Source of the DNA: Thermoproteota archaeon
Lineage (GTDB): Archaea; Korarchaeota; Korarchaeia; Korarchaeales; JAOZGB01
DNA: 64,000 bases
Reading direction: 5' to 3'
Assembly (NCBI GenBank): GCA_037917685.1
Contig: JAVCBU010000012.1
Coordinates: 352,001 to 416,000 of the forward strand
A program made the translations under genes and the position numbers. Below, one piece after another: positions 2,307-44,005 of this stretch (its first letter is position 1; each line of letters begins with the position of its first letter). The notes beneath the pieces are model-generated. The model searched no databases and was not told where the DNA came from. It saw only the letters and a list, made by a program, of their open reading frames with translations.

Positions 2307-3656
2307 CTACCCATATGCTACAAGTTCTACTTCGTCGATGCTTACCCTTCTATTATTATCTCTATCAAACCATCTAACGACAATAATATTTTTCCCTTGA
2401 AGATCATCCCAATATTCTATCAGAAACTTCGTGATGGCCTCAGTTCCATACCGTGTGCATCCCATCAGCATTAGTACGGATCGTCTACCCCAGTTATCAT
2501 AGGCTATTGTTGCAACACCATAATCCCCTTCGGCCCAGTTTGAGGAATTGAATGTGAATGTTTCATTTTCTACTTCAACCCATGATCCTGAACGGTTGAC
2601 GTGTATTAAGCCATAAATTCTAAGCTCTATCTTACCGTCTGATTTATCGAAATCTACAGGTGCTCTTTCTATAAATTGCCTGGATGCTGGATTTGATAAT
2701 GGGCCTCCAATGGCTACGAGGTCGTGTACCCCAGGGTAGGTCCCTACGTATACTCTGCCCTTAAAGTTAAATTTAGCTTGAAAGGTATTAGCCAGCTTTT
2801 CTTCAACACCAGTCGTGCTAATTGAGGCCTCTCTGTGGAACTTTAGGAATCTATACACCGTTTTAACCTCAGCTTCCCCGCAAAGGGAGCATGCCGACTG
2901 TATAACGTATCCGTTTTCGTCATATACTGCTGCAACTGCCCTTAAATTTGAAGGATTTGAATCCTGGGATATTTGCCAGGATCCGTGTAAAATAACTCCG
3001 TTACCTGTTAGAACTGGGATATGCTCCTCTAACGCGAGACCTCGAAATATGGAATCGAAGGTTTTAGTCTCTCTTAGTACATACACATAGTCTTCCACGT
3101 TATCTTCAACTATATATACCACAGCTTGTAGATTATAGATCGCACTGGACTGGTCAAGATCTACATACAAGGTTACGTCCACTTTACCACTCTTAACTTC
3201 AAAGTTTAATCTTAGTCTTACCTTAGGAACCTCTCTTTGCATCGATTTCCAAAGCAGGTATTGGTATTCATCTTTAATATTCTCAGAAGAACCGTCTTTC
3301 CTCTCGTATCCCCCATCAAATAAGACTATCGGGGCTGAAACATCTGAATATCCGCCTATGGCCTTTGCTTTGTTAACTCCATATTCTGTCTCAAGCGAAT
3401 CCTTAATTTCCTCTGAAGTTGAGACCCTATATATTACTAAGTGCCATTCGTGATACTCGTTTTCGCTCCAAAGTTCTTGGATAGCTGGATCACACGAGTT
3501 CATACAATGAGGGCAAGTCTCACTGGTAAACACTTCAACAAGCACGGAATGCGTGGGTTCACCGCCCTCTACACTATAGGAAAACAGAGCTAGAGAAAGG
3601 GTTAAGAGTACTAAAGTTAGCTGTATCGTTAATATTGGATACGGACTTTTATCCAT
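2307..3656 (-). CDS. Secreted thioredoxin-like (CxxC) protein with a C-terminal S-layer-type module
   Basis: N-terminal signal peptide; LVEVFTSETCPHC; C-terminal AIGGPLSNP and MGCTRYGT motifs. Confidence 0.6.
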   Translation of the reverse strand: MDKSPYPILTIQLTLVLLTLSLALFSYSVEGGEPTHSVLVEVFTSETCPHCMNSCDPAIQELWSENEYHEWHLVIYRVSTSEEIKDSLETEYGVNKAKAIGGYSDVSAPIVLFDGGYERKDGSSENIKDEYQYLLWKSMQREVPKVRLRLNFEVKSGKVDVTLYVDLDQSSAIYNLQAVVYIVEDNVEDYVYVLRETKTFDSIFRGLALEEHIPVLTGNGVILHGSWQISQDSNPSNLRAVAAVYDENGYVIQSACSLCGEAEVKTVYRFLKFHREASISTTGVEEKLANTFQAKFNFKGRVYVGTYPGVHDLVAIGGPLSNPASRQFIERAPVDFDKSDGKIELRIYGLIHVNRSGSWVEVENETFTFNSSNWAEGDYGVATIAYDNWGRRSVLMLMGCTRYGTEAITKFLIEYWDDLQGKNIIVVRWFDRDNNRRVSIDEVELVAYG

Positions 3657-3713
3657 AGGTCTTGTATCTCCCTATTATAGTTTAACTGTTGTTTAACGCA
3701 CGTCGAACCCTAC

Positions 3714-4133
3714 TTAGATTCCCCTCTTCTTTGCATCTTCAATGGCAAACCTGCGGTATTCTTCAGGACTCATTAATTCTTTAGTCTCTTGATCTATATT
3801 ACTTGGTTCCAGTACTGCTATCCACCCCTTACCGTATGGATCAGAGTTCAACAATCCGGGATTATCTTCCAAGTCCGTATTTACTTCAATAACTTTACCT
3901 GAAATGGGACATTTAAGTTCTCCCGACCATTTTCCGCTTTCTATAAGGCTTAGGGGGTCTCCTTTGGAGAGCTCATCTCCTTCCATGGGTAGCTCGACAT
4001 ACACTATTTTCTTTGCAAGGTACTGGCCGTAATCTGTAAGCCCTACTCTAGCTTTCCCGTCTTCTATCTTTACCCACATGTTATCTTTGCTATAATATAG
4101 CCCCTCAGGGGTTTTAAACCTGGTTTCCGACAT
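3714..4133 (-). CDS. gcvH: Glycine cleavage system H protein (lipoyl carrier)
   Basis: ARVGLTDYGQ, VYVELP, IESGK (lipoyl-Lys), PISGKVIEVN, NSDPYGKGWI; ATG at 4133 follows a GAAGGTGA SD. Confidence 0.9.
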   Translation of the reverse strand: MSETRFKTPEGLYYSKDNMWVKIEDGKARVGLTDYGQYLAKKIVYVELPMEGDELSKGDPLSLIESGKWSGELKCPISGKVIEVNTDLEDNPGLLNSDPYGKGWIAVLEPSNIDQETKELMSPEEYRRFAIEDAKKRGI

Positions 4134-4186
4134 TTCACCTTCCACCTTGCTTATCAACCCAGGTTTTTTATTAATATGTGTGAGAG

Positions 4187-5851
4187 CTACACTGCTATTG
4201 CGATGATTTGAGAGGAGGAATGTCGGAACTCGCAGGGAGGTAACAGGATTTTTGCTTTAAATATGAAATGGTCATTTTTATCCACGACCGCCGCTATTTG
4301 TCCGGATCTTAGATCCGGATCGTAGTCTTCGACCTGGTTTCCCAAAACTATTCGATCCCTTGGGAGAGTATTCACTATTAATCTGCCAAGTGGGGGCTTA
4401 TTTGTGGATATTAAAATTCTAAATCCTTCATCAGTAAGTATAGGTAGGCCATCAGAGTCTATATACCCTATTTCCCTGTTTTTGAGGATAAATATTATTT
4501 TATTCTCGTGTTTCTTGGTTTTTAAGCCTGCTATGTCTATATTGTAATAGTATTTTAACAGTTGCCTCGCTGTTTCCAGCGGGGTTAGTTCATCTTGAAT
4601 TTTAGATTTTTTAAGCTGTTTGAGTGGATACGTTTGGAGGAGGCCGGCAGGTATCACCCCTAGCCCCTTGACGTAAACATGTTTGCCGGGATACCTTCTT
4701 GGCATTCTAAGTCTTATCCTCGCTATTTCCGGCCTGAGCCAGAACTCTACTCCAGCGTATCTTGGGGGGTTATCTTTAATTATTGGCTCGTATTTCTCAA
4801 TCCATCTAGAATGTTTCCTTAATAGGAGAATTAATGCTTCTAAAAATCGCGGGTGCGATCTAGCTCTTAATTGAACGAGATTTAAGAGCTCCTGGTTTTT
4901 TATGGCAGTCTTTACAATTTTCAACTCTTCAAAAGTTACGAAAAGATTGTGTCTTGCTAGTAACTCCATTCTCTCTTTCTTGTCCATCTCTAAAAGTTCC
5001 TGAGGTGTGTATTTTACACAAACTGGGCAACTGCAAGGAAATTCTTCTATTTCCATTAATTTTAGTGTGCCGAAGGCTGTTAAGTATCTGTCTTGCCTTG
5101 CTGCGATACTGTACATAGCTGAATCAAATAGGTCGCAACCTAAAAATGCTAGCAATGAGAATATCATAGGATGGCCTGCGCCAAAAGCATGTATAATTTT
5201 GTCTGGAATAGTCTTTTTGATAGCTATTATTATGTCGCATATTTCTTTATAGTTGTAACTCATAAGGTAGGGGGCTAGGCCTCCGATAGCATATATATTT
5301 CCCACGTTTCTGAGGGCTATGGCGGATTTTACTCTCAGATCAATATGGGTCCCTCCTTGTAATGGAATAAGGTATTCTCTCCCGCTTGGGATTATTCTTT
5401 TTGAACTTATAACTCTACGTATTGTTTCGTCGACTTTACTCTCTGCTTCTTCTCTACTGTCTTTGGGTAGTACAAAATAGTCTAAAGGAGTAATTATGTC
5501 TGATCCTATCTCTACTTGGAATTTAACGATTGTTTCTGGATCTACACCCTTTATTCCCCTAGAGTACATTTGGTACGCTCCTGAATCGGTCATTATGATC
5601 CCATGAAAGTTCAACATTCTATGGAGCTTCTCTTCCTTAGCTTTTTCCCTCAGAGAAGGAGTATTACCAATTATGTAGGCGTTTGTTATCAGTATTTCTG
5701 CTTTAAACTGGTTTCCAAGCTCTACTGGGCTAATAATCAGCTTATTAGGATTTACGACTATAGCTATGTTTGGCGTTTCAACCTTTTTCCCCGCAACGTT
5801 TAGAACAGAGATTTTCGCAAGTCCATCTCTATATTTTATCTCCCTCTCCAA
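4187..5851 (-). CDS. tgtA: Archaeosine tRNA-guanine(15) transglycosylase
   Basis: ITNAYI, MTDSGAYQ (catalytic Asp), HAFGAGHP, GCDLFDSA, Zn site CSCPVC...HNL, ARSHP; degenerate C-terminal PUA-like region. Confidence 0.93.
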   Translation of the reverse strand: MEREIKYRDGLAKISVLNVAGKKVETPNIAIVVNPNKLIISPVELGNQFKAEILITNAYIIGNTPSLREKAKEEKLHRMLNFHGIIMTDSGAYQMYSRGIKGVDPETIVKFQVEIGSDIITPLDYFVLPKDSREEAESKVDETIRRVISSKRIIPSGREYLIPLQGGTHIDLRVKSAIALRNVGNIYAIGGLAPYLMSYNYKEICDIIIAIKKTIPDKIIHAFGAGHPMIFSLLAFLGCDLFDSAMYSIAARQDRYLTAFGTLKLMEIEEFPCSCPVCVKYTPQELLEMDKKERMELLARHNLFVTFEELKIVKTAIKNQELLNLVQLRARSHPRFLEALILLLRKHSRWIEKYEPIIKDNPPRYAGVEFWLRPEIARIRLRMPRRYPGKHVYVKGLGVIPAGLLQTYPLKQLKKSKIQDELTPLETARQLLKYYYNIDIAGLKTKKHENKIIFILKNREIGYIDSDGLPILTDEGFRILISTNKPPLGRLIVNTLPRDRIVLGNQVEDYDPDLRSGQIAAVVDKNDHFIFKAKILLPPCEFRHSSSQIIAIAV

Positions 5852-7175
5852 TTAACTCCCTCTTTAAGATGGTCTTTAGCCTTTCCACTGCTAGAGGATG
5901 GGCAACTGCTGGTTTAAAACTTTCTTCAACTATCTTACTATAAGTTTTATCGTCGATAACTTCAATTAGTTTTAGCTGTGTTCTTTCGAATGCTATTCTT
6001 ATAGCTTTGATTGTTTCTGAATCAGGCCTAAAATATGCTATATACTTTTTGTAATGGTCTGAGTGAGCTCTAAGATATTTTTCCACCCTTACACTGGTTA
6101 TCTCTATGTATTGCTTTTTTATCTCTTGAGTTTCCCTCCATTCCTCCCAGTCGTAGTGGGAGAATGGATAATATCTTATGTACTCGTATGGAATTACACC
6201 TGGGGAACTCACAGCTACGATATGTATCTTTCTGAAAAAGGGAAAACCAGATATTCCTGATAGTATGGCCTTCCACGTCTTAGACTTTGTGTAGGGTTTT
6301 TTATACGCGCATGGTAGGAAAAGGAGGTATATCTTTCCTTTAGGTGGACTATAAAATCTTAGAAAGTAGTCTTGCCACACTTCATAGTAGGGATGCCTTA
6401 GATACTCTATGCCTACACCTTTGAGTTTTACTCTTTTCTCTGGTGGGAATCTAGGTACAAAAGCAAAATTGTTAAAGTCAAGTTCCACCTTAGGGTTGCT
6501 TCTCCACTTACCTACTAGTTTTTCGAACTGTTCCTTATCTAGCGGCCTCCATGCTCCTCTGATATAATCATTCCAGAGCTCTGAATCTACGTGGGGGTAA
6601 GTGTTTATGATTACAATGCTGTCGGAGTATTTTAATGCTAGTTCAACGGTCCTATGGAGTATCCCTTGTTGTAAATTAATGTCCTTAAATATTGGGTGAG
6701 GGTTAACAAGGATGTATGTTCTTACCCCTAATCCCTTTTCTCTCAGTTTTACGGCTGCTCTTATGTATTCTTCCACTGTTTGACCCTTTTTTAGTAGTTC
6801 AAGAATCTTATTATCTGCGACTTCGAGGCCCATTGCAATGGTGACCTTTAATCCGTCTACTATTAAGTCGTCAAGGCTGTTTTGAAGAACGTGTCCTACC
6901 CTTGACTCAATTACGACCTCTTTAACTCCAGCATCTCTTATTATCTGAAGCATTTCCTTTAGAATCCATCTGGGGAACTGTCTTTTGTCAAGTAGGCTAC
7001 CAGATGAGAATATCTTTAGTTTTTCGACTCCTTTATTTTTATCAAGAAATCTTCGGAGTTTATCTATCAGTTCCTTGGGGGTGACATTTACTTCTCTCTT
7101 CCCCCAACCACAAAAATAGCATTTCCCCCAGCTACACCTGCCACTTTCAAGAATTATGGAAGCTTCATTACTCAA
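5829..7175 (-). CDS. Fusion of a RaSEA-type radical SAM domain and an ArcS-like (DUF5591-type) domain; putative archaeosine synthase
   Basis: N-terminal CSWGKCYFC, KIFSSGSLLD, IESR, AMGLEVAD; C-terminal LFLPCAYKKPY, SSPGVIPYE, YPFSHYDW; overlaps the tgtA start. Confidence 0.8.
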   Translation of the reverse strand: MSNEASIILESGRCSWGKCYFCGWGKREVNVTPKELIDKLRRFLDKNKGVEKLKIFSSGSLLDKRQFPRWILKEMLQIIRDAGVKEVVIESRVGHVLQNSLDDLIVDGLKVTIAMGLEVADNKILELLKKGQTVEEYIRAAVKLREKGLGVRTYILVNPHPIFKDINLQQGILHRTVELALKYSDSIVIINTYPHVDSELWNDYIRGAWRPLDKEQFEKLVGKWRSNPKVELDFNNFAFVPRFPPEKRVKLKGVGIEYLRHPYYEVWQDYFLRFYSPPKGKIYLLFLPCAYKKPYTKSKTWKAILSGISGFPFFRKIHIVAVSSPGVIPYEYIRYYPFSHYDWEEWRETQEIKKQYIEITSVRVEKYLRAHSDHYKKYIAYFRPDSETIKAIRIAFERTQLKLIEVIDDKTYSKIVEESFKPAVAHPLAVERLKTILKRELIGEGDKI

Positions 7176-7763
7176 CTAGACACCTATAAGCCCATTTACC
7201 TTTAACCATGTGCTTGCGCCTTTTAAAATGAGCTCTATTGCTATGGCTGCTAGCAGAAGCCCCATAACTTTCACTATTATTCTGACACCACGCTTACCTA
7301 TTTTGCTGAGTATTTTAGGAGACAATCTCAATATTACATATGAGAGGGACATGCTTATTGCTAGGGCGATTATTACGGTTGTGTGATTGTAGCTTCTCAT
7401 AAGAATGATCGATAATGTTATAGCTCCTGGACCTGCTAGAAGTGGGGTTCCGATAGGCACAGCTGCAAATTCGTCAAGTGAAATCTTAGGCTCCACGTAT
7501 TTGATGAACTCGAGTGCTAAGGATAGAAGCATTATTCCACCGGCGATCATAAAGCTGCAAAGTGAGATGTCAAGAGCCCTGAGCAATATATCTCCAAGGA
7601 TTGTGAAAAATAGTAGAAGACTGAAGGCTACGATAACTGCGTCTCTGGCCACTTGATTAACCTTTCTTCTATCAACCATGGAGAATATTGGCACAACGTT
7701 AAATGGATCTATTATAAGGAAGAGTTGTATGAACACTTTCAAGATTTCAGTCATCATCACCAC
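7176..7763 (-). CDS. MarC family membrane protein
   Basis: LIIDPFNVVPIF, IAGGIML, AVPIGTPLLAGPGAI, KVMGLLLAAIA. Confidence 0.92.
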   Translation of the reverse strand: MVMMTEILKVFIQLFLIIDPFNVVPIFSMVDRRKVNQVARDAVIVAFSLLLFFTILGDILLRALDISLCSFMIAGGIMLLSLALEFIKYVEPKISLDEFAAVPIGTPLLAGPGAITLSIILMRSYNHTTVIIALAISMSLSYVILRLSPKILSKIGKRGVRIIVKVMGLLLAAIAIELILKGASTWLKVNGLIGV

Positions 7764-7783
7764 CGGTCAGGATGAAAGTGAAG

Positions 7784-7913
7784 TGGGGCTGGTGGGATTT
7801 GAACCCACGATTCACGGGTTTCTCCAGCTCCAGAGCGTCTTCATCCCTGGATTGTCAGAATCTGACATAGGGGCTCTGGAGCCCGCCGCCCTACCAGGCT
7901 AGGCTACAGCCCC
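7784..7913 (-). tRNA. tRNA-Trp(CCA) with a 56-nt intron at 37/38 (intron 7820-7875)
   Basis: Acceptor stem GGGGCTG/CAGCCCC; anticodon stem GCGGG/CCCGT around CT-CCA-G^A; T-arm GTGGG-TTCAAAT-CCCAC. Confidence 0.95.
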
Positions 7914-7943
7914 ACTTAAGATATGTATAGATGCGATTAGGAT

Positions 7944-8234
7944 TTAAATTTTATTATCGAGCTTGAATGTGACTATATGGGTAAGATTAGGTTCCTCTTT
8001 GACTTTTAAGATTCTGAATTTTAGATTTGCACGATCTAATAGGTCGTAGATTAGGTCTTCAAAGTAGTCGTATATTCCACAGGTTCTGCAATACGTACCT
8101 GTAAATTTGACGATTATGGTATCCTCAGTGATTCTTAGAAGTTCTGCTTTAGCTTCGGGGCTTCTATACTTGTTATATTCATCTATCCCCTTTTTAATTA
8201 GTTTTTTGAAACGTTCTGAGCTTATGTCAACCAT
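7944..8234 (-). CDS. Small archaeal protein with a NifU-C-like CxxC motif
   Basis: YNKYRSPEA...VKFTGTYCRTCGIYDYFEDL. Confidence 0.6.
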   Translation of the reverse strand: MVDISSERFKKLIKKGIDEYNKYRSPEAKAELLRITEDTIIVKFTGTYCRTCGIYDYFEDLIYDLLDRANLKFRILKVKEEPNLTHIVTFKLDNKI

Positions 8235-8289
8235 TTCTACCTAAACTATTTTATGATAGTGGAATCTCTAAAAATAAGTCATATCGGAT

Positions 8290-10353
8290 ATGAGAGATCA
8301 TGTGCTTATAATCGCTGAAAAGGAAAAACAAGCGGAGCAGATAGCTGGTATACTGTCGAATGGGAAGTATGAGCGCAAGAACATCGGAAGAGTTCGATAT
8401 TACGTATTTAAACGTGATGGGGTAAACATTACGGTTGTACCAGCCAGAGGCCATATATACCAGTTGGAAACAAGAGACAAAGGCTATCCTACGTTTAACG
8501 TTGAATGGGCTCCCACGAGGGGTGTGAGAGGGATCAAATCATATATTAAGGCTATAAAAGGGCTTTACAATGGCGGAAGGATCGTATTAGCTACGGATTA
8601 CGACATGGAGGGGGAGGTTATCGGTGGTAACATTATAGAATTCACACTTGGAATTAGAAACGTCGATAGCATTGATAGGATGATTTTCTCTAGCCTTACA
8701 AGAGAAGAAATTACAAGGGCGTGGGAAAACCCTTCTAAAGTTGATGTAAAGCTTCTGGAGGCTGGCAGGGCAAGGCATGAGATGGATTTCATGTGGGGGG
8801 TGACATTTTCGAGAGCTTTAATGGAAGCTGTTAGGATAGCGGGAGGTCTCAGGAGGCATCCGCTCAGTGTCGGGAGGGTTCAAACCCCAATGCTTGCTGC
8901 AGTAGTCGAATTAGAGAGGAAAATACAGAATTTCAAGCCGGAACCCTACTGGGAGTTGGTGGCTAAGGTTTTGATTAATGGGAAGTGGTACACAGCGCAG
9001 TATGTTGGAAATCCGATTAAAAACAAGGAGGAAGCCGAGAGATTACTAGAAAAGGCAAAGGGAGGGAAAGCAATCGTTAAAGATGTTAAAACTAGTAAGA
9101 GTGTCAGGAAGCCTCCTGTTCCCTTTGACACTACAGAGTTGCAGAAAGAGGCGTCAAGATGGTTTGGCCTATCACCACAACAAACCATTAATCAAGCTGA
9201 AGGTATTTATCTAGAGGGCGCCATCTCATATATTAGAACGGATAGCCAGGTCTATCCTAAGGATTTAGACCATAAAAGCTTGCTATCTAAACTGTCGGGT
9301 ATATCTAAGGAATACAGAGAATTCGCAGAAGACCTACTGTCTAAGGGGAAGCTCAAACCTTCTTCTGGAAAGAAGGGCGGTAAGGAGTCTGCCCACCCAG
9401 CTATACACCCCACCGGGAAGAAACCCAGACAACTTAATAAGAGGCAATGGAAGCTCTACGATCTCATCTGCAGGAGATATTTCGCCACGCTTGGGGACAA
9501 TATGGTTAGGGAAACAAAGAGAATAACGATAGATATAAATGGTTTGACATTTAAACTCTCGGGAACAAGAACTGTGGATATAGGGTGGGGGAGATACTAC
9601 AAGCCATACCTGGATTTACAGGAGATAGACTTTGGCCCTGTAAAAGCTGGCGACGAACTTAGATTTAATGTAGACTTGGTAAAGAAGATGACTAAACCCC
9701 CACCGAGGATGACACCGATGAAACTTGTACTTTGGGCTGAGAAGAATGGTATAGGAACTAAGGCCACCAGGGGAGAGATGATTAAAAAACTGCTTGACAG
9801 GAGATATCTTGAAGTTGAAAAAAGAGCTTTGAAGCCCACAAAGCTAGGCTTCTGCGTAGCGGAGGTCATAGAGGAGAGGATACCTATCCTACTAAGCGTA
9901 GAAATGACTAGAAAGTTCGAGGAACAACTATTCCTTGTTAAAAATGGTAGGATAACGAGAGAAGAGCTTTTGGAAGACGTTAAAGAAGAGATATTAAAAC
10001 TTACTGAGGAATTTAACGAGCATATAGAGAGAATAGGCAAGGACCTGCGCAGAAAATTATCGGAAACTATAGAAAACACAATAGGTGTATGTTCAAAGTG
10101 CGGTAAGCCTTTAAAGCTGATAAGGAGAAGCGACGGAAAACGTTTTATATGGTGCACTACTCTAAATTGCACATATTACCCACTCCCACAGAAGGGTAAG
10201 CTGACAATAATAAACAGCAGAAGGTGTATAAAGTGCGGTCTGAAACCTATAAAGGTATCTCAAAGGGGGAAAAGATCATGGGAGCTCTGCGTAGCCTGCG
10301 GGATCTGCTTCAAGTGTGAGCTTTTCAAAGAATGTATACAACAATCCCGGTAG
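8290..10353 (+). CDS. topA: Type IA DNA topoisomerase with C-terminal Zn ribbons
   Basis: IIAEK, GH, ATDYDMEGE (Toprim), SVGRVQTP, ISYIRTDS (catalytic Tyr), AHPAIHPT, GIGTKATR; Cys-rich C-terminus. Confidence 0.95.
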   Translation: MRDHVLIIAEKEKQAEQIAGILSNGKYERKNIGRVRYYVFKRDGVNITVVPARGHIYQLETRDKGYPTFNVEWAPTRGVRGIKSYIKAIKGLYNGGRIVLATDYDMEGEVIGGNIIEFTLGIRNVDSIDRMIFSSLTREEITRAWENPSKVDVKLLEAGRARHEMDFMWGVTFSRALMEAVRIAGGLRRHPLSVGRVQTPMLAAVVELERKIQNFKPEPYWELVAKVLINGKWYTAQYVGNPIKNKEEAERLLEKAKGGKAIVKDVKTSKSVRKPPVPFDTTELQKEASRWFGLSPQQTINQAEGIYLEGAISYIRTDSQVYPKDLDHKSLLSKLSGISKEYREFAEDLLSKGKLKPSSGKKGGKESAHPAIHPTGKKPRQLNKRQWKLYDLICRRYFATLGDNMVRETKRITIDINGLTFKLSGTRTVDIGWGRYYKPYLDLQEIDFGPVKAGDELRFNVDLVKKMTKPPPRMTPMKLVLWAEKNGIGTKATRGEMIKKLLDRRYLEVEKRALKPTKLGFCVAEVIEERIPILLSVEMTRKFEEQLFLVKNGRITREELLEDVKEEILKLTEEFNEHIERIGKDLRRKLSETIENTIGVCSKCGKPLKLIRRSDGKRFIWCTTLNCTYYPLPQKGKLTIINSRRCIKCGLKPIKVSQRGKRSWELCVACGICFKCELFKECIQQSR

Positions 10354-43786: not shown

Positions 43787-43794
43787 TGGAGGTA

Positions 43795-43879
43795 CGCCGC
43801 CGGCCGGACTTGAACCGGCGACCACTCGGTCTCTACATTTATTAACAGCCGAGCGCTCTACCAACTGAGCTACGGCGGC
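43795..43879 (-). tRNA. tRNA-Asn(GTT) with a 12-nt intron at 37/38 (43831-43842)
   Basis: GCCGCCG/CGGCGGC acceptor stem; CTCGG-CT-GTT-A^ATAAATGTAGAG^A-CCGAG; T-arm GCCGG-TTCAAGT-CCGGC. Confidence 0.95.
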
Positions 43880-43890
43880 ATAATAAAGTA

Positions 43891-43979
43891 TAGCCCCGGC
43901 CGGATTCGAATTCGCCGCTTGAGGCTCCGGCGTCAGCGGGTCCAGAGCCCGCTGTGCTTGGCCACTACACCACGGGGCT
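43891..43979 (-). tRNA. tRNA-Gln(CTG) with a 16-nt non-canonical intron at 53/54 (43911-43926)
   Basis: AGCCCCG/CGGGGCT acceptor stem; GCGGG-CT-CTG-GA-CCCGC; T-arm GCCGG^AGCCTCAAGCGGCGAA^TTCGAAT-CCGGC with a bulge-helix-bulge. Confidence 0.93.
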
Positions 43980-44005
43980 ATCAATATAATAGAAGGATTA
44001 GATTA

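Follow-up and report, generated by a model that had tools for sequence, protein, structure and literature searches.

The archaeal DNA analyzed here, a stretch of 64,000 nucleotides (nt) referred to below as the window (positions 352,001 to 416,000 of contig JAVCBU010000012.1, assembly GCA_037917685.1), carries next to tgtA, the gene for the archaeosine tRNA-guanine transglycosylase, an open reading frame (ORF) whose product of 448 amino acids (aa) joins a RaSEA-like radical-SAM domain to an ArcS-like DUF5591 domain. We consider it likely that this fusion is a self-contained, single-chain archaeosine synthase with two active sites, which would take as its substrate the preQ0-tRNA that TgtA makes with salvaged preQ0. 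A first-pass annotation of the window had proposed that both steps of archaeosine (G+) synthesis are fused in this protein, and the analysis supported that reading at the level of a function predicted from sequence. In the proposed pathway preQ0 would be imported by the organism and not made, and TgtA, encoded by the overlapping downstream gene, would put it at G15 of the tRNA. The C-terminal DUF5591 domain would then act like ArcS and attach lysine at the nitrile of preQ0-15. The radical-SAM domain at the N-terminus, whose C14/C19/C22 would hold a [4Fe-4S] cluster, would, like RaSEA, cleave the lysine adduct to give the formamidine of archaeosine; the adduct would be handed over between two sites of one chain.

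The ORF at 5829-7175 proved real, and all the motifs originally quoted for it were found in the translation. Profile searches matched each half to the family that the first-pass annotation had named for it, TIGR01210 for the N-terminal half and DUF5591/ArcS for the C-terminal half. Pfam Radical_SAM matched residues 13-157 (E 3e-10), and among the NCBIfam profiles RaSEA ranked first by far for the N-terminal half (TIGR01210, E 2.3e-27, residues 5-163 on model positions 16-183 of 313), the next being MnmL and Elp3 (both E 2.5e-6). Other members of the fusion family scored 82-138 bits on the same profile. Five stand-alone RaSEA proteins that passed the family cut-off (267-358 bits), taken from the search of representatives, were aligned with four fusion members; C14, W16, C19, C22, G23, K54, S58-S60, E90, G116-E118, K130 and G131 were common to the fusion and all five RaSEAs. 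The three-cysteine site with its C-x-W and C-x2-C elements, together with the SSGS and GLE core motifs, is present in the fusion as in RaSEA, and the motifs IESR (88-91) and MGLEVAD (115-121) were also read in the translation. The KIFSSGSLLD stretch probably contributes to SAM binding, and the RaSEA-like part of the protein is a trimmed core.

The C-terminal half matched a single family, DUF5591/ArcS, among the Pfam and NCBIfam profiles, with PF17884 (DUF5591) at residues 267-407 scoring 51.9 bits against a cut-off of 26. Against an ArcS that passes its own family cut-off (P0264, 443.5 bits) the half showed 33% identity over 127 aa, the alignment spanning both the PC..KPY..S block and the SP-G..P.E..YP..YD block. 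The motif PC-x3-KPY-x2-S-x2-H is described for ArcS (bioRxiv 10.1101/2023.04.13.536721; PMC5699537). Its residues P, C, K, P, Y and S are all present in the fusion, and its final His is Trp301. The protein contains only four cysteines, 14, 19, 22 and 289, and C289 may, as a comparison with QueF suggests, serve as the nucleophile toward the nitrile.

An AlphaFold2 model of the fusion, built with 24 family members, had a mean predicted local distance difference test (pLDDT) of 93.2 and a predicted template modeling (pTM) score of 0.86, a confidence at which both halves are expected to make up a single body. Foldseek returned radical-SAM matches for the N-terminal half. The top structural match of residues 1-238 was the queuine lyase 6p78 (Z 18.5, root mean square deviation (rmsd) 3.1, 211 aligned, identity 16%), which by its entry title is a radical-SAM C-N lyase on a 7-deazaguanine; viperin 5vsl (Z 17.8) tied with it within 1 Z and biotin synthase followed at Z 17.0. 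In sequence this half is much nearer to RaSEA than to queuine lyase. For residues 265-444 the best solved match was AF0587 of Archaeoglobus fulgidus (2q07; Z 15.4, rmsd 2.6, 139 aligned, identity 21%), a split-ArcS-like protein with a DUF5591-like domain which ranked first by sequence, too, among solved structures (E 2e-4, with the motif region aligned). AF0587 was deposited as uncharacterised and, unlike the fusion, has no radical-SAM domain.

The same architecture was counted in 153 of 185 candidate stretches and thus occurs in no fewer than 153 species genomes; recurrence on this scale is not due to chance. Eighty of the 153 stretches were fetched, and conservation was counted over 81 sequences including the window protein. 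The fetched set covers Methanomethylicia, Culexmicrobium, Thermofilaceae, Thermoproteaceae, Acidilobaceae and Desulfurococcales as well as Asgardarchaeum, Altiarchaeota and many DPANN groups. The first-pass annotation had held that crenarchaea use Gat-QueC or QueF-like enzymes instead; since many Thermoproteota carry the fusion, that rule is incomplete. Family members are about 420-490 aa long and have the same domain order over their full length as the window protein, which aligned with many of them at 96-100% query coverage and 40-87% identity. Twenty-six positions were invariant in 81/81 members, among them C14, C19, C22, S58, G59, S60, D63, E90, G116, L117, E118 and K130 in the N-terminal half and C289, K293, P294, Y295, S298, S323, G326, P329, P337, F338, Y341 and W343 in the C-terminal half. 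W16 was found in 77/81 and P288 in 79/81. This pattern is consistent with purifying selection on both sites. The CX4CX2C spacing, found in 81/81 members, is specific to the family.

A tree of 80 rows, from which L020 was left out as too short, followed the taxon labels (17 label changes against 30.6 in shuffles) and placed the window protein with L008 (support 100) inside a clade of 23 rows, mainly Thermoproteota (support 99). A word-indexed protein search gave 246 matches, of which the best 120 were 315-488 aa long, all with DUF5591 and 104 also with Radical_SAM; the names of these best 120 were generic ('DUF5591 domain-containing protein', 'radical SAM protein'). When the 50%-identity representatives were searched exhaustively, 27 matched at E <= 1e-30, followed by stand-alone DUF5591 proteins, stand-alone RaSEAs and canonical ArcS, and in the Protein Atlas only the family's own clusters were found, with 93 and 75 members and generic names. 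Other domain orders were also met: P0142 (680 aa) has DUF5591 and then RaSEA, and P0203, a fragment, has DUF5591-C2-PUA-radical SAM, so the two domains have been joined more than once. In P0128 (635 aa) an insert lies between the radical-SAM and DUF5591 halves. The first-pass annotation knew of no characterised fusion of this kind, and none was found described in the literature searched, although primary RaSEA or ArcS papers or their supplements may mention one. As far as that literature goes, the fusion is a widespread, uncharacterised variant of the ArcS-RaSEA system.

The gene content of the window's own genome, which is 95% complete, was compared with that of 26 other fusion-bearing genomes spanning several of the family's phyla. 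As the first-pass annotation had asked to be checked, the window's genome contained no stand-alone ArcS, RaSEA, QueF-type enzyme or QueC/Gat-QueC: its one DUF5591 match was the fusion gene itself, the only RaSEA match besides the fusion was a weak one (28.6 bits) in a 535-aa ORF, and the matches to the QueC profile were ThiI and NadE. QueD was likewise not found. With no QueC or QueD in this genome, preQ0 is most likely imported, and two candidate importers of the YhhQ/Vut_1 and QueT families were found (Table 1). Both families import queuosine precursors.

In the 26 other genomes TgtA was over its cut-off in 23, just under in two and not found in one. None had a RaSEA over the cut-off, the best match always being the fusion, and none had a second TGT-type paralog able to be ArcS. 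QueC exceeded Pfam's low cut-off in 20/26; the match was strong (168-249 bits) in four, and the other 16, at most 32 bits, are probably other PP-loop enzymes, by analogy with the window's own genome. QueF-like and Gat-QueC carry out the same pathway step in archaea without ArcS and belong to Crenarchaeota (PMC5699537), with folds and chemistry unrelated to those of the fusion; the window's genome and the 26 others yielded neither of them. In five genomes (G002, G003, G005, G009 and G010) additional DUF5591 matches in ORFs of 533-640 aa were considered as canonical ArcS and rejected, the ORFs being TgtA (TIGR00432 496-572 bits); the matches arise because the DUF5591 profile matches the homologous C1 region of TgtA. 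Four of these genomes (G002, G003, G009 and G010) have a TgtA of 533-551 aa, whose C1 region scores on the DUF5591 profile, reaching 53 bits in G010, plus a separate C2-PUA protein of 150-166 aa. The fusion is also present in the complete genome of the cultured Ignicoccus pacificus DSM 13166 (G001), where it lies with a 273-aa stand-alone DUF5591 protein, QueC and TgtA within about 41 kb (C1:832031-873731); the TgtA of this strain is the product of a gene scoring just under the cut-off.

The linkage of the fusion to tgtA recurs. The first-pass annotation had noted an overlap of 23 nt with the tgtA start, which stands, and the downstream ORF scored over the TIGR00432 cut-off; the columns of D89, D243 and C273/C275/C278/H301 of this TgtA were invariant among 19 TgtAs. 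The overlap suggests translational coupling of the two genes. tgtA was found within 8 kb of the fusion in 23 of 80 loci and directly adjacent in eight. The linkage takes two different arrangements, tandem and divergent: in L008, the closest relative, tgtA is tandem and overlapping as in the window, and in 22 DPANN-type loci it is on the opposite strand, seven of them head-to-head within about 100 nt.

Coordinates of the fusion gene, its parts and its neighbors are collected in Table 1. The four genes at the locus, for MarC, the fusion, TgtA and the glycine-cleavage H protein, are co-directional on the minus strand, and the fusion begins, with TTG, at the base next to the TAG that ends the MarC gene. 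This TAG and TTG lie in one frame at 7173-7178, giving an open frame of 645 aa that contains a single TAG; the N-termini of homologs speak against a read-through of the MarC TAG into the fusion. A scan of 3500-8400 gave 15 promoter-like sites against 11.7 expected and two terminator-like sites against 4.1, but it used a bacterial consensus, which is uninformative in an archaeon. Elsewhere in the window (43794-43980, minus strand) ARAGORN predicted a tRNA-Gln(CTG) adjoining an 87-nt tRNA-like gene with a two-base 'anticodon', which may be an intron-bearing or unusual tRNA.

Table 1. Features of the fusion locus and related genes elsewhere in the same genome.
Feature	Location	Strand	Details
RaSEA-like/ArcS-like fusion gene	5829..7175	-	448 aa, TTG start; RaSEA-like core and ArcS C1/DUF5591 core
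Radical-SAM partial barrel, residues 1-239	6459..7175	-	closest family RaSEA (TIGR01210)
C14-x4-C19-x2-C22 (CSWGKCYFC), W16 between	7110..7136	-	predicted [4Fe-4S] cluster ligands
KIFSSGSLLD, residues 54-63	6987..7016	-	glycine-rich stretch common to RaSEA
Connecting segment, residues 240-264	6384..6458	-	pLDDT block means 89 (241-250) and 94 (251-260)
ArcS C1-type domain (DUF5591), residues 265-444	5844..6383	-	PF17884 and 2q07 fold match
P288-C289-x3-K293-P294-Y295-x2-S298-x2-W301 (within LPCAYKKPY, 287-295)	6273..6314	-	ArcS motif match
SSPGVIPYE (322-330) ... YPFSHYDW (336-343)	6147..6212	-	second conserved ArcS-core block; aligned to P0264
MarC/NAAT-family membrane protein gene	7176-7763	-	upstream of fusion gene
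tgtA (archaeosine tRNA-guanine transglycosylase)	4187..5851	-	554 aa; TIGR00432 422 bits, cut-off 350
Fusion/tgtA overlap	5829..5851	-	23 nt; fusion TAG ends at 5829, tgtA TTG at 5851
Purine-rich GAGGGAG	5856-5862	-	4 nt before tgtA TTG; read from sequence
Glycine-cleavage H protein gene	3714-4157	-	same strand as tgtA, fusion and MarC
TGT-family paralog, 469 aa	G000:C6 (L007:787-2196)	-	partial TGT (model 229-356 only), TGT_C2, PUA
YhhQ/Vut_1 family protein	own genome		115.8 bits; candidate importer
QueT family protein	own genome		54.5 bits; candidate importer
Loci given for the YhhQ/Vut_1 and QueT family proteins	L101 (C1:9779-10243) and L102 (C14:244858-245343)		own genome

The first-pass annotation was right that the fusion has no TGT-like or PUA domain; what it had not noted is a distinct 469-aa TGT-like/C2/PUA paralog in this genome, which has no DUF5591 (Table 1). 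ArcS was the best NCBIfam match of this paralog (114.7 bits). Its gene adjoins the gene for F420-0:gamma-glutamyl ligase. A word-indexed search of 7,998 candidates returned, besides the paralog, only two close homologs, at 74% and 71% identity. As a general partner of the fusion, forming a 'split ArcS', the paralog was rejected: none of the 26 other fusion genomes had a full-length match, 25 of them matching only through TgtA (and in four through the 150-166-aa C2-PUA proteins) and one having no match. It may still be a partner of the fusion in this genome.

Within the window's phylum the full fusion was found in 2 of 43 species genomes, both of the window's genus, and not in the other 41; its restriction to the genus indicates a gain or a retention at genus level. 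A TGT-family match was found in 41/43 genomes, and ArcS, RaSEA, QueF and QueC over their cut-offs in 0/43. Whether the fusion and the known enzymes replace one another could not be read from their distribution within the phylum, as the 41 genomes without the fusion are also without every known alternative.

The closest known system is the ArcS-RaSEA complex of Euryarchaeota (Thermococcus kodakarensis), in which ArcS attaches lysine to preQ0-15 and its bound partner RaSEA turns the resulting adduct into G+ (PMC11298593). The fusion has the same two catalytic domain families and the same place in the pathway after TgtA, and the cluster cysteines, the SSGS/GLE motifs and the PC..KPY..S motif are common to both. 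The partners are associated in either case, as a complex in ArcS-RaSEA and as one chain here, with a size of 448 aa in the fusion against about 575-600 aa plus 330-350 aa. A second relative is ArcS2, a DUF5591-only protein of Vibrio phage nt-1 and STSV-2 (bioRxiv 10.1101/2023.04.13.536721) which shares with the fusion the minimal ArcS C1/DUF5591 core without TGT-like, C2 or PUA domains. ArcS2 stands alone and acts with DpdA on DNA, whereas in the fusion a radical-SAM domain is joined to this core and the gene is linked to tgtA.

A number of observations weigh against the proposed function and are gathered here. Both halves fall below the curated cut-offs for their families: the N-terminal half reached 96.1 bits on RaSEA, where the equivalog cut-off is 212.15, and on the two ArcS 'subunit alpha' profiles residues 245-416 reached 50.7 bits on NF053620 (E 1e-13, model 205-368, cut-off 600) and 47.4 bits on NF040592 (E 1e-12, model 261-412, cut-off 440). 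The CX4CX2C spacing, which the first-pass annotation took to be typical of RaSEA, is not: four of the five bona fide RaSEAs have CX7CX2C and one has CX9CX2C. In the alignment with these five, the fusion was also missing the N-terminal extension of 25-45 residues and the C-terminal tail with four cysteines (C-x2-C ... C-x-C), its barrel being followed by DUF5591 instead. The final His of the ArcS motif is replaced by Trp in the window protein and 18 other members, the window's clade included (position 301 is His in 62/81 and Trp in 19/81). Relative to canonical ArcS, with its Nt, C2 and PUA domains (bioRxiv 10.1101/2023.04.13.536721; PMC5699537), the fusion is without the TGT-like Nt domain, and no Pfam match to TGT, TGT_C2 or PUA was found in it, which raises the question of its route to the buried position 15. 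At the genome level, tgtA was unlinked in 57/80 loci, several of these on contigs of just 2-6 kb, and three of the 26 fusion genomes also encode a stand-alone DUF5591 protein. QueF (PF14489) was not over its cut-off in the window's genome or in any of the 26 (0/26), with the sensitivity of PF14489 for archaeal QueF-like enzymes not validated by control genomes. TGT-family genes occur in nearly all genomes of the window's phylum without a known G+ synthase and with the fusion in two genomes only, and the presence of TgtA is by itself no proof of G+ synthesis. The literature searched contained no report of archaeosine from an organism with this fusion alone.

The missing tRNA-binding modules bear directly on one rival reading, with the same chemistry, in which the fusion is the catalytic module of a larger holoenzyme and docks on a tRNA-binding partner to reach position 15, the partner being TgtA in most lineages or the 469-aa paralog in this genome. 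Apart from the absence of an RNA-binding domain, it draws on the overlap with tgtA and the recurrent adjacency of the two genes, on the Nt, C2 and PUA domains that canonical ArcS retains, on the acceleration of ArcS by the D-arm (PMC11298593) and on the fact that the ArcS-like scaffold in this genome, the 469-aa paralog, is missing exactly the DUF5591 part. That paralog, however, was not met in any of the other fusion genomes, the word-indexed search gave only its two close homologs, and tgtA is unlinked in most loci. In addition, ArcS accepts the preQ0 nucleoside 5'-phosphate, though not the free base (PMC11298593), and as it is active on the nucleotide alone a core domain without tRNA-binding modules is plausible. 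We regard a docking module as a possible but somewhat unlikely arrangement. It is improbable, in our judgment, that the fusion is a 7-deazaguanine enzyme with a different outcome, either giving a product other than G+, halting at or reworking a lysine-type adduct, or serving salvage with a nucleoside or nucleotide as substrate in place of tRNA. The divergence of both halves from the curated families, the loss of the Cys-rich tail and the change of His to Trp at 301 fit such a role, as do the organism's dependence on salvage, the top structural match to queuine lyase, a salvage enzyme, and the Sulfolobus virus STSV-2, which encodes DUF5591 and carries dCDG and not dG+ (bioRxiv 10.1101/2023.04.13.536721). 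On the other side, all 81 members retain the catalytic motif residues of the two parents without exception, the fusion gene has its link to tgtA, and the searches of the 26 genomes gave no further enzyme for the G+ step. The queuine lyase match is tied with viperin and is one to the general radical-SAM fold only.

The third rival, with only one half catalytic, seems to us very improbable. The DUF5591 domain might, for example, amidate preQ0 directly with ammonia or glutamine while the radical-SAM half is regulatory or catalyzes an unrelated reaction, or the reverse might hold. In its original description ArcS accepted Gln, Asn or NH4+ in vitro (PMC5699537), and a phage DUF5591-only protein, ArcS2, gave dG+ in E. 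coli without RaSEA (bioRxiv 10.1101/2023.04.13.536721), so that DUF5591 chemistry need not include a radical-SAM step; this too counts against the two-step scheme. A one-half enzyme is difficult to reconcile with two sites that are both invariant across distant phyla, with the independent fusion of the same two domains in other orders and with the two parents being known partners, which form a complex (PMC11298593). The single-chain synthase with two active sites was preferred over all three.

Three routes from preQ0-tRNA to archaeosine have been described, ArcS-RaSEA, QueF-like and Gat-QueC. The 26 fusion genomes have TgtA (found in 25) but none of these routes, and the fusion family would therefore fill this gap. 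More tentatively, and with somewhat less than even confidence, we propose that the fusion, and not ArcS plus RaSEA, QueF-like or Gat-QueC, is the main archaeosine synthase of DPANN, Altiarchaeota, Asgard and many Thermoproteota, that it works without a TGT/PUA module by passing the adduct within one rigid body, that most carriers use scavenged preQ0, and that tgtA, the fusion and an importer would make up the whole pathway. The fusion would define a lysine-transfer domain of minimal size together with a trimmed core of RaSEA, both in a single chain that is predicted to fold well (pLDDT 93). It could yield a structure of the two-step machine, which according to the 2024 ArcS paper is still missing (PMC11298593). 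A dependence on imported preQ0 in most carriers would also have a bearing on the metabolic hand-outs between symbionts and hosts.

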